IMG/VR virus record: IMGVR_UViG_2703718838_000006
Source of the DNA: a virus
Taxonomy: Duplodnaviria > Heunggongvirae > Uroviricota > Caudoviricetes
DNA: 19,738 bases
Reading direction: 5' to 3' (one strand)
How positions within the stretch are numbered: position 1 is the stretch's first letter; every line of letters starts with the position of its first letter. Below are positions 12,001-15,000 of the stretch, one piece after another. Made by a program: the position numbers.

Positions 12001-15000
12001 GCCAGAAAATGAAATTAGGCAGCAAACCATTTATTTGAGAGGAATTAATATGTCATCAATCCGCTTAACTACGAGAATAAAAGAGGAAATAGCTCGTAAC
12101 GCTTTAATTAAGTCTGGGGTTTTCACTGAACTTGAAGAAGTAACAAAGTTAAAGAACCAGCTTGCACTTGACGCCAGAGTTATTGCGTTTGGCGGTAAAA
12201 AGAAAACTGAGGAAGTGGATCAGTTATCATCCAAGTTAGTAGCTATAAGTGAAGAACTTGAAAAACTGGGATGTTCATTTTACTCATACGATGTTCGTTC
12301 TACATCAATTTATCTGACTGTATCTGGCAGAAGAGTTGGCTGGCATTCATACGGAAAAGACGGCAACGGTGAAGATATATTGCTCCCCACCCCAGAAAAA
12401 GATAAATGCATGTTTGACGCAGAACACGAAATAACAAAAAGGTTTGATGAAATCTGCGCATTGCAACAAAAACTTGAAGCCAAGAAAAAGGATATCGAAT
12501 CAAATGTATGGGCTGCTTTGAACTCAGTCACAACAGTTAAGCGACTTATTGAAGTTTGGCCTGAAAGCAAAGAGTTGCTACCAAAAGAAGCAGATAAAGC
12601 AAGTACAGCACTTCCTGCTTTACGGGTAGAAGATTTGAATAAGATGATTGGACTTCCTTCCGAGGCCGCATAGTCGGCCTTTATTTTTAGCATAAACAAC
12701 AGAATAAACACTGCACTGTGTATTCATTCCAACGAGTGAATACACGGAGCAATGTCGCTCGTAACTAAACAGGAGTCGACTTGTTCTGATTATTGGAAAT
12801 CTTCTTTGCCCTCCAATGTGAGGGCCTTTTTATATGCATAACAATAACGCTTCACTCGAGGCGTTTTCGTTATGCAATCAAACAGAAGGAGCATCCTATG
12901 CAACAGTTCGCTATTGCAGGGGCGGCATCGGTTCGCCCTTTCAACCCGATTTTATCGGTGCAGCATTCACGAAAAAATATTTTAACCGGAGCAGACTTTA
13001 AACAACCAAGAATGAAAAGTTTGCTAGAAAAGCTTTGGGATATTTTGAAACAACAAGGCCGCCCATGAGTTTTACAGATAACTGGTCAGACGAAGAATTC
13101 ATTCGTCAGATGAAAGATTTAATCGGTAACGAAGGAGATATTCATGTCACTTGCAACCACAGTGAAGGAGAGCAAGTTACAGAGACGCATGTACACGCAG
13201 AAAGCTCTCTGGTATCGCCATAATGGTGACCGCGAAGGAATGCGGGTATGCCTTAATTTGTCCCGAGTCGAAGTATTAAATCAGCGTTATTTCCTTGGGC
13301 CGTGTCCATTCTGAGGTGAATTATGGATTTGAACAAATTCGATGAGCCATTCAGCCCTGAAGATATCGAATGGCGAATACAGCAAAGCGGTAAAACACGC
13401 GATGGCAAGGTGTGGGCTATGGTGCTGGCTTATGTCACGAACCGGGCAATCATGAAACGCCTGGACGATGTTTGCGGCAAAGCAGGATGGCGCAATGAAT
13501 ACCGCGATATTCCCAACAACGGCGGAGTTGAATGCGGCATATCAATCAAGATTGATTCCGAATGGGTAACCAAATGGGATGCTGCTGAAAACACGCAGGT
13601 AGAAGCCGTCAAAGGTGGTCGTTCAGGTGCAATGAAGCGTGCTGCCGTTCAGTGGGGAATCGGTCGGTATCTGTATAACCTTGAGGAAGGTTTCGCACAA
13701 ACATCTCTCGATAAAAAGCAGGGGTGGCACAGGGCAAAACTGAAGGATGGAACAGGATTTTACTGGCTCCCTCCATCGCTGCCGGGATGGGCAATCCCAG
13801 CATCAGATAACAAACCATCACCAGAAAATACCAACCAGAAATCTCCATCGGTTGACTGCGAACAAATCCTGAAAGACTTCAGCGATTATGCGTCAACAGA
13901 AACTGACAAGAAAAAACTCATCGAGCGTTATCAGCGTGACTGGCAATTAATGGCTGGCAACGAGGAGGCGCAGGCTAAATGCGTTCAGGTAATGAACATC
14001 AGAGTTAACGAACTAAAACAGGCGGCATAAATGGCAAGCAGAGGCGTAAATAAGGTGATCATTATTGGTCGCCTTGGGCATGATCCAGAAATCAGATATT
14101 CACCATCAGGAACGGCATTTGCAAACCTTACAGTTGCTACGTCAGAACAATGGCGTGATAAGCAAACTGGAGAGCAAAAGGAGCAGACGGAGTGGCACCG
14201 TGTGGTAATGAGCGGGAAACTAGCAGAAATTGCCAGCGAGTATCTGCGAAAAGGCTCTGAGGTTTATCTTGAAGGCAAATTGCGGACAAGAAAATGGCAG
14301 GATCAAAGCGGACAGGATCGGTTCACTACCGAAGTTATCGTAGGCGTTGGTGGAACCATGCAAATGCTTGGTGGCAAGCAAGGAGGCAATGAACAGTCTT
14401 CACCTCAGCGAAATAACGGTCAGCAACAAAGACAGCAACCTCAGCAGCAGGGAAATCACAGCGAACCACCTATGGAGTTTGACGACGATATACCATTTGC
14501 GCCAGTAACTCTCCCCTTCCCTCGTCACGCTATTCACGCAATTTAATCAGGAGAAAATCATGCCAGCGCCTCTGTATGGTGCGGACGACGCGCGCCGCTG
14601 TTCCGGCAATTCCGTATCGGAGGTGCTGGATAAATTCAGAAAAAACTACGACCTGATAATGTCGCTACCGCAGGAAACGAAAGAGGAAAAGGAATTTCGC
14701 CATTGTATATGGCTTGCAGAGAAAGAAGAACGCGAGCGAATTTACAAGACATCAATCCGACCATTCCGCAAAGCCACATATACCCACGTCCCTGAATATA
14801 TCGACCCGCGCCTGCGTAATTACCGCTCACGCTATGGCGCTATCAGTAATGACTGAGGAATTAACAATGAAAACAATGAAGCTAAACATCGACCTCGGAA
14901 AATACGTTATTACCGGAACCAAACACGATCTGATTCTTAGCGAAAGAGGAATTATCAAAGAAGGCGAGAATGCAGGGAAAGAAACACTAAGTCGTATCGG

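Follow-up and report, generated by a model that had tools for sequence, protein, structure and literature searches.

IMG/VR record IMGVR_UViG_2703718838_000006 (19,738 nucleotides; the window hereafter means this whole stretch of DNA) represents the early half of a lambda-like prophage in E. coli. The gene at 12050-12673 on the + strand, in the PL operon, encodes a 207-amino acid (aa) protein that, judged from its sequence, is almost certainly a standard single-domain member of the Nmad5 family (PF18757). This gene and its terminator form a separately acquired mosaic accessory cassette, placed in the stretch from the antitermination genes to cIII. The product may be a binding protein without enzymatic activity, made early under the control of N and serving host takeover or counter-defense, a tentative reading to which a probability of about 0.4 is given.

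Identity of the gene product

The reading frame extends from an ATG at 12050 to a TAG stop at 12671-12673 (207 codons) and is nested in a longer TTG-started open reading frame (ORF) at 11990-12673. A ribosome-binding site, GAGAGGA, was read off the sequence at 12037-12043 on the + strand, and its Shine-Dalgarno-like AGGA (12040-12043) lies 6 nt 5' of the ATG. The ORF is a real, selected gene and not a chance frame, because its Pfam match reaches E=8e-72, about 2300 clusters match the same family, and the ratio of nonsynonymous to synonymous substitution rates (dN/dS) is 0.16 over 63 distinct close alleles. None of these alleles contains an internal stop.

A Pfam scan of the protein matched PF18757 with E=8.3e-72 and 242 bits, against a cut-off of 27, over residues 4-203 of the protein and the entire profile (1-206 of 206). 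A PHROG scan matched phrog_1965 (E=2.7e-83), a family of unknown function, and no other Pfam family, GP17 included, rose above noise in the Pfam scan. The full name of PF18757 is "nucleotide modification associated domain 5", and homologs are named "Nmad5 family putative nucleotide modification protein" by NCBI, while NCBIfam holds no dedicated model for the 207-aa protein. The Nmad5 family was reportedly defined by Iyer et al. in 2013. An earlier note on this DNA had placed a 207-aa gene at 12050-12673, with which the start and stop codons, the AGGA motif, the Pfam match, and dN/dS agree. Its description of the product as unknown and without a recognizable motif does not hold, as PF18757 covers the whole length and the protein is a typical Nmad5 member that is so named by RefSeq.

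The family is large, with 2301 clusters at 50% identity matching the Nmad5 profile at E<=1e-3. A diverse family alignment was made from the best 150 of these roughly 2300 representatives, nearly all of which are 185-230 aa long. No second Pfam domain was found among 109 profile matches, nor was an extra Pfam domain found in a 296-aa homolog (P0203). Copies named in RefSeq and at least 90% identical to the window protein, nearly all of them 95-99% identical, are carried by 211 of 5426 complete E. coli genomes (about 4%), the RefSeq name being attached to E. coli genes of 97-99.5% identity, and a close-alignment profile search of genome contigs found matches in four species only. The window protein shares length, single-domain build, C-terminal block, and predicted fold with Nmad5/PHROG 1965. 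It differs in that the modification-gene neighborhood that gave the family its name is missing around it, and in its setting as a cassette in a lambdoid PL operon. Such a neighborhood is context and not a sequence criterion; therefore, the membership stands, whereas the function implied by the name is unsupported here. The identity of the gene is thus already known, as a member of a catalogued family named in RefSeq. With about 2300 clusters and members in Stx-converting, N4-like, Yuavirus, and Dhillonvirus phages, the family is still without a measured function or a known fold.

A mosaic accessory cassette

The boundaries of the cassette were located by blastn against related phages. Homology to HK75 halts at 11923, in the terminator after the nun-like gene, and restarts at 12666, in the terminator of the Nmad5 gene, so that 11924-12665 (+ strand) is an insertion or deletion relative to HK75. 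HK75 has nothing from nun to the two tandem terminators that precede cIII, and in mEpX1 the block 12008-12657 is swapped for two small unrelated ORFs. The nearest phage, mEp235, is 97% identical across 92% of the region 11200-13400 of the window and has the same annotated gene order.

The same breakpoints recur in 80 close IMG/VR loci. The homology block starts at 11930-12030 in all but five and ends at 12700-12920 in all but nine, and in all 80 loci homology continues past 12700 and the terminator is retained. The shared flank covers 20-120 nt before the ATG, with 20 loci sharing as little as 20-30 nt, and 30-250 nt past the stop. These breakpoints indicate that the transferable unit is the gene together with its terminator. 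A P22-like prophage (CP182378) carries a 99.5% identical copy 11 nt behind a different N-like gene.

The terminator of the gene is an intrinsic-terminator-like hairpin with a T-run at 12662-12688 (+), found by pattern scan and supported by its fold and its retention in the close loci. The G+C-rich hairpin (12662-12681) spans the Nmad5 stop codon and is followed by TATTTTT; its fold is worth -11 kcal/mol (z=-2.3). Two further terminator-like hairpins stand in tandem at 12808-12865 (+) in the gap between the cassette and cIII, with a combined -29.5 kcal/mol (z=-6.5). HK75 is annotated with two terminators at the homologous place, and because these hairpins are common to HK75 they are not part of the cassette. 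The downstream edge of the variable slot is a cIII-like gene at 12898-13068 (+), matched by phrog_550 (E=4e-22) over residues 36-91 of the ORF 12793-13068.

The G+C content of the Nmad5 gene is 38-39%, against 43-52% for the cI, N, and erf/ssb regions, and the nun-like gene is equally AT-rich (36-38% G+C). The proposal in the earlier note of an AT-rich, separately acquired gene with its own terminator in a variable accessory slot is borne out by the homology breaks on either side, the hairpin and T-run, the empty slot of HK75, and the two unrelated ORFs of mEpX1.

Ral, SieB, and gp17 occupy established positions on the lambda and P22 maps. The window gene resembles lambda Ral and SieB and P22 gp17 in its PL-operon position and in its optional, mosaic nature. 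A moron, a term said to come from Juhala, Hendrix, and colleagues, is a gene that was acquired independently and brings a promoter and a terminator of its own. The Nmad5 cassette is moron-like in being a discrete insertion or deletion with a G+C content under that of its flanks and its own terminator. It differs in that the gene runs in the direction of the early operon, on which it probably depends, and in that a conserved upstream region is absent.

In 48 records of Stx2a-converting phages, a 1.3-kb element of the IS3 insertion sequence (IS) family interrupts the Nmad5 gene near codon 35. The element is IS629-like (OrfA 108 aa, OrfB 296 aa) and lies at 1196-2504 of the locus from phage Stx2_716, at a site that corresponds to about 12155 of the window. 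Stx1a phages have the gene intact. The split gene suggests that it is dispensable for the Stx2a phages.

A 2.3-kb stretch of Shimwellia pseudoproteus DSM 3038 (4951-7266 of the locus) is 97.6% identical to the window and includes N, nun, Nmad5, cIII, and the small ORFs that follow. This identity in a different genus points to recent exchange of the prophage region across Enterobacteriaceae. Several lambdoid and P22-like prophages have, directly after Nmad5, a gene for a 322-aa Glu/Lys/Ala-rich coiled-coil protein, which PGAP names "cell envelope biogenesis protein TolA"; it was seen in CP182378 (13299-14267 of the locus) and 10 other close loci and is absent from the window.

Predicted structure and conserved residues

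The AlphaFold2 model built from the 150-sequence alignment is confident, with a mean predicted local distance difference test score (pLDDT) of 92.6 and a predicted template modeling score of 0.84. It opens with three long helices (residues 8-72), after which come a small beta sheet (86-122), another long helix (127-158), and a C-terminal module of short helices, with poor prediction at residues 185-189 only. Foldseek found no fold match in the PDB at E<=0.001; the best PDB match by single sequence (phmmer) had E=0.23, and the best by profile, a designed helical protein, had E=0.015. Against BFVD, Foldseek returned 14 matches at E<=0.001, all of them Nmad5-named, unnamed, or uncharacterized phage proteins, the best with E=3e-13 and a template modeling score of 0.76. 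The check by structure prediction that the earlier note had proposed thus gives no relative of solved fold.

Near-invariant positions in the 150 diverse members are I14, A18, R43, G48, G93, T162, L166, W170, P171, E172, E175, L176, P178, L196, N197, G201, and L202, and R5 is arginine in 134 of 150. The block T..L...WPE..EL.P ... LN...GLP, together with R5, R43, G48, and G93, is complete in the window protein, at column frequencies of 90-100%. The only conserved polar residues in this deep alignment are R5, R43, T162, E172, E175, and N197, and no conserved cluster of His, Cys, Asp, or Ser was found in it. The conserved set is mostly structural, with a few charged or polar residues, and makes up no recognizable catalytic constellation.

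No membrane segment or nuclease-like motif is predicted in the protein. Its isoelectric point (pI) is 5.9, with 34 acidic and 32 basic residues, and the family median pI is 7.7. A DNA mimic of the Ocr or ArdA type was considered and rejected on account of this near-neutral charge and the lack of a fold match.

Neighborhoods of the family and its possible roles in replication and modification

A tblastn search found Nmad5 in 379 phage records, among which are lambdoid, Stx-converting, Yuavirus, Vibrio, Dhillonvirus, Bordetella, and N4-like phages. Its positions in them are diverse. Salmonella phage SPN3UB carries the gene in its nin region, and in the early operon of a lambdoid prophage (L091) it is flanked by DUF4406 and an MT-A70 methyltransferase. 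In the N4-like phage Pollock it stands just past the polymerase, with a thymidylate synthase on one side and a gp42-like exonuclease on the other, and in one further locus (L263) a primase-polymerase precedes it. The copy of a Z-genome phage comes after PolA and before an RNase_T exonuclease, near PurZ/DatZ/MazZ-type genes. Yuavirus Lydia carries it beside a 5-hydroxymethyldeoxyuridine DNA kinase, a deoxyuridine hydroxymethylase, and PolA; the Lydia homolog matches PF18757 with E=2.4e-34 and is about 27-29% identical to the window protein. In a Mu/P2-like element the gene adjoins an integrase. In Dhillonvirus Ioannina (4536-5297 of the locus) it is on the opposite strand within the head module, and in another phage (L261, 5001-5582) it is placed between the portal/MuF gene and capsid-side genes and co-oriented with the latter. 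The position between portal/MuF and scaffold/capsid thus recurs in two unrelated lineages, outside a replication context.

A neighbor survey took a single locus per cluster from about 30 clusters at 80% identity, with four genes on each side scanned against Pfam (about 230 proteins). The commonest neighbors were DUF2800 nuclease (9), family A DNA polymerase (9), and Enc34-type SSB (8), followed by repressors, recombinases, and helicases; RecT, YqaJ, Rad52/Erf, SSB, and AAA_24 were further neighbors. Nucleotide-chemistry proteins were rare, with one Thy1, one PurZ-type synthetase, and one dATP/dGTP diphosphohydrolase.

These neighbors raise the main rival possibility, which we consider rather doubtful, that Nmad5 serves phage DNA replication or recombination as a non-catalytic accessory subunit, for instance by working with SSBs, annealing proteins, or exonucleases on replication intermediates, and has no specific link to host immunity. 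The three commonest neighbors are of this kind, the order SSB-Nmad5-PolA recurs, polymerases or exonucleases adjoin the gene in Pollock and the Z-genome phage as the primase-polymerase does in L263, and erf, ssb, and abc2 lie about 650 bp downstream of the window gene. However, the replication systems that accompany Nmad5 are unrelated to one another (own PolA, N4 type, and lambda-type host replisome), and the gene is found alike with Bet, RecT, ERF-family, and Rad52-type recombinases, which argues that it has no constant phage partner. It is also found in head-gene regions and beside integrases, and in the Stx2a phages an IS element disrupts it.

A further point against a replication subunit came from a reverse survey of 76 IMG/VR loci that have an Enc34-type SSB and sufficient flank (DUF2800/Enc34-SSB/PolA modules). 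Nmad5 is present in 23 of these, 16 times directly after SSB. The other 53 (70%) are free of it, and in 10 loci the gap between SSB and PolA is empty, with the polymerase directly next. Other occupants of the gap are PDC-S25, a candidate defense gene with a SIR2 domain, an AntA antirepressor, DUF2303, and AT-rich membrane proteins on the opposite strand. These alternative contents show that Nmad5 is one of several inserts even in its most stereotyped position. A core replisome subunit, as a candidate, is weakened by the absence of Nmad5 from 70% of these near-identical modules. The SSB-PolA junction itself (L181-L260) is an accessory hotspot. The optional slot, the IS-disrupted Stx2a copies, and a viable Dhillonvirus deletion (PMC11846954) together mark the Nmad5 gene as conditionally useful.

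A helper role in nucleotide or base modification, for instance as a scaffold or specificity subunit, is improbable. It is suggested by the Pfam and NCBI names, by the PurZ/DatZ/MazZ-type genes near the Z-genome copy, by MT-A70 and DUF4406 in L091, and by M6-like Yuavirus phages, in which the Nmad5 gene sits in a thymidine-hypermodification cluster (PMC9476957). The protein of M6/SN1-type Yuavirus belongs to the same family as the window protein, but the kinase, hydroxymethylase, and PolA that flank it there have no counterparts in the window, and the window ORFs scanned against Pfam and PHROGs included no enzyme that modifies bases or nucleotides. Only three of the roughly 230 neighbors have a nucleotide-chemistry function, and an enzyme-like residue set and a fold match are both absent from the protein. 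The association may be indirect, since replication modules are where modification genes are generally located. The survey suggests that the family name may mislead, as Nmad5 behaves like an optional cassette of accessory slots and replication modules and not like a component of a modification pathway.

Dhillonvirus Nmad5 and escape from Tmn

The only study with data on an Nmad5 protein is that of Yamashita et al. 2025 (PMC11846954). Dhillonvirus mutants that escape Tmn carried Nmad5 K216E (PhiSMA8) or K296E (PhiSMS22), and reversion of the K-to-E changes restored sensitivity to Tmn (PMC11846954). Deletion of the Nmad5 gene left the phage viable without conferring Tmn escape, and the gene could not be cloned, apparently owing to toxicity (PMC11846954).

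On a 253-aa Dhillonvirus homolog, with the PhiSMA8 protein assumed to have the same length, K216 is matched by R165 of the window protein, a position inside the block TTVK(R/K)L...WPE. The column of R165 holds K or R in 110 of 150 family members. This homolog covers the full PF18757 profile and is 38% identical to the window protein across the C-terminal 97 residues. The Dhillonvirus and window proteins are thus alike in Pfam family, in being encoded by a dispensable accessory gene, and in the equivalence of the escape lysine to R165. They differ in length, as Dhillonvirus Nmad5 is longer (253-333 aa) with a divergent N-terminal half, and in setting, since its gene is on the opposite strand in the head-gene module of a virulent phage. 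The sole known phenotype of the family, Tmn escape, therefore falls in its conserved block. The Nmad5 gene goes unmentioned in the Enc34 SSB paper and in the phage-escaper survey covering SECphi4. The "NMAD" component of a validated defense system in DefensePredictor (Science 2026) is Nmad2 (PF18753), not Nmad5, and was set aside as irrelevant.

Expression and a possible defense function

A PL-like promoter, TTGACC-17-TAAATT, was found by promoter scan at 11042-11070 (+). Within the region 11042-11160, a nutL-like boxA, GCTCTTTAA, lies at 11118-11126 (+), at the position homologous to the annotated boxA of mEpX1, and is followed by a hairpin. A terminator-like hairpin with a T-run stands 3' of the nun-like gene at 11912-11935 (+; -10.3 kcal/mol, z=-2.45). 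A consensus scan found no sigma-70-like site within 11930-12050, although weak or unusual promoters may escape it, and no conserved upstream segment travels with the Nmad5 gene in the 80 close loci. The PL transcript would reach the Nmad5 gene only if N permits read-through of the terminator after the nun-like gene. Such N-dependent read-through would place expression early in lytic growth and switch it off in the lysogen. The simplest reading of these signals is N-dependent early transcription from PL and probably not from the repressed prophage.

This bears on the proposal of the earlier note that the gene serves in defense or exclusion. By analogy with sieB and P22 gene 17, it could be a prophage gene for defense, superinfection exclusion, or abortive infection. 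The gene does occupy a variable slot in which lambdoid phages carry such genes, its low G+C content and own terminator are moron-like, and P22 GP17 (superinfection exclusion) lies within four genes of Nmad5 in one other locus. The SSB-PolA slot elsewhere can hold PDC-S25, and the Dhillonvirus homolog is apparently toxic on cloning (PMC11846954). A defense gene is nevertheless very improbable. N4-like phages, Yuavirus, and Dhillonvirus are virulent phage groups, and their members have no lysogen to protect. The gene is always on the early-operon strand, behind a terminator, and without a promoter-like site or a conserved upstream region, and a predicted membrane segment and nuclease-like motif are absent from its product. 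The defense-classifier check suggested in the earlier note gave no match, as PADLOC-DB 2.0 returned nothing at E<=1 for the 207-aa protein and nothing at E<=0.001 for two distant homologs, from Dhillonvirus and N4-like phages.

Proposed mode of action

An anti-defense or host-takeover role is plausible. The elongated helical bundle with its small beta sheet may act through binding rather than catalysis, because a catalytic-looking residue set is absent. The likely contact surface would be the near-invariant C-terminal block T162-x3-L166-x3-W170-P-E172-x2-E175-L-x-P178 ... L196-N197 ... G201-L-P203, together with R5 and R43. The partner may be a conserved host component or a DNA-replication intermediate, and the protein would then be a dispensable factor that, in certain host conditions, favors or shields the replication and recombination of phage DNA. 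Members in N4-like, Yuavirus, Dhillonvirus, and Z-genome phages are counted as support for a benefit to the lytic phage over a benefit to the lysogen. The Tmn-escape change in Dhillonvirus Nmad5 and its apparent toxicity on cloning (PMC11846954) are counted as a link to immunity and to interference with the host.

Several points weigh against a binding protein of host takeover or counter-defense. Wild-type Nmad5 did not protect against Tmn, and the missense allele alone had an effect (PMC11846954). The mapping of the escape mutation to R165 depends on the length assumed for the PhiSMA8 protein. Conservation of the C-terminal block, where the pLDDT of the model is about 80, could reflect folding or self-assembly, and the fixed position between the SSB and polymerase genes in many phages would suit a replication accessory subunit equally well.

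A broader extension of the host-takeover reading, which we regard as unlikely, is that Nmad5 proteins form a widespread, unrecognized class of counter-defense or host-takeover factors whose C-terminal block docks onto a conserved target, either of the host or associated with replication. The family name would then be a by-product of position in replication modules, the Tmn-escape site (R165 here) would mark a functional surface, and the cassette would provide a K-12 model in mEp235 and HK542. Since lambda-like phages that plate on E. coli K-12 carry a copy, the function is genetically easy to test.

Prophage context

The PL operon reads, in order, N-like, Nun-like, Nmad5, cIII, two small genes, a Rad52/Erf-type annealing protein, SSB, Abc2, DUF5405, Ea22-like genes, DUF551, xis, and int. 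The N-like antiterminator gene is at 11267-11572 (+) and is assigned by phrog_271 (E=1.2e-31), a weak match to PF25694, and the annotation of mEp235. The Nun-like transcription termination factor gene follows at 11581-11913 (+), assigned by phrog_5632 (E=9.3e-71) and by the GenBank and RefSeq annotation of mEp235 and mEpX1. The Nmad5 gene had been taken for the first intact gene past N, which is not the case, as this intact Nun-like gene intervenes. N-like and Nun-like genes stand in tandem in one PL operon in mEp235 and mEpX1 also; in HK75 the Nun-like gene is the first one annotated past pL/putL, and no N gene is annotated. 

Leftward of the immunity region, the window encodes an HNH endonuclease, Rha, Rz, lysozyme, Q, RusA, YbcO, Ant, a Toprim/DnaB-type helicase, an HTH_36 initiator, cII, cro, and cI. 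Two Rha-domain proteins are encoded on the - strand in the late-regulatory and nin regions, at 839-1393 and 4586-5308; one is fused to ORF11CD3 and the other to a KilAC/ANT antirepressor domain. At the other end, a lambda-type integrase (17250-18320) is followed by a pectinesterase-like (ybhC-like) host gene (18455-19738), which indicates that the window extends beyond the int end of an integrated prophage.

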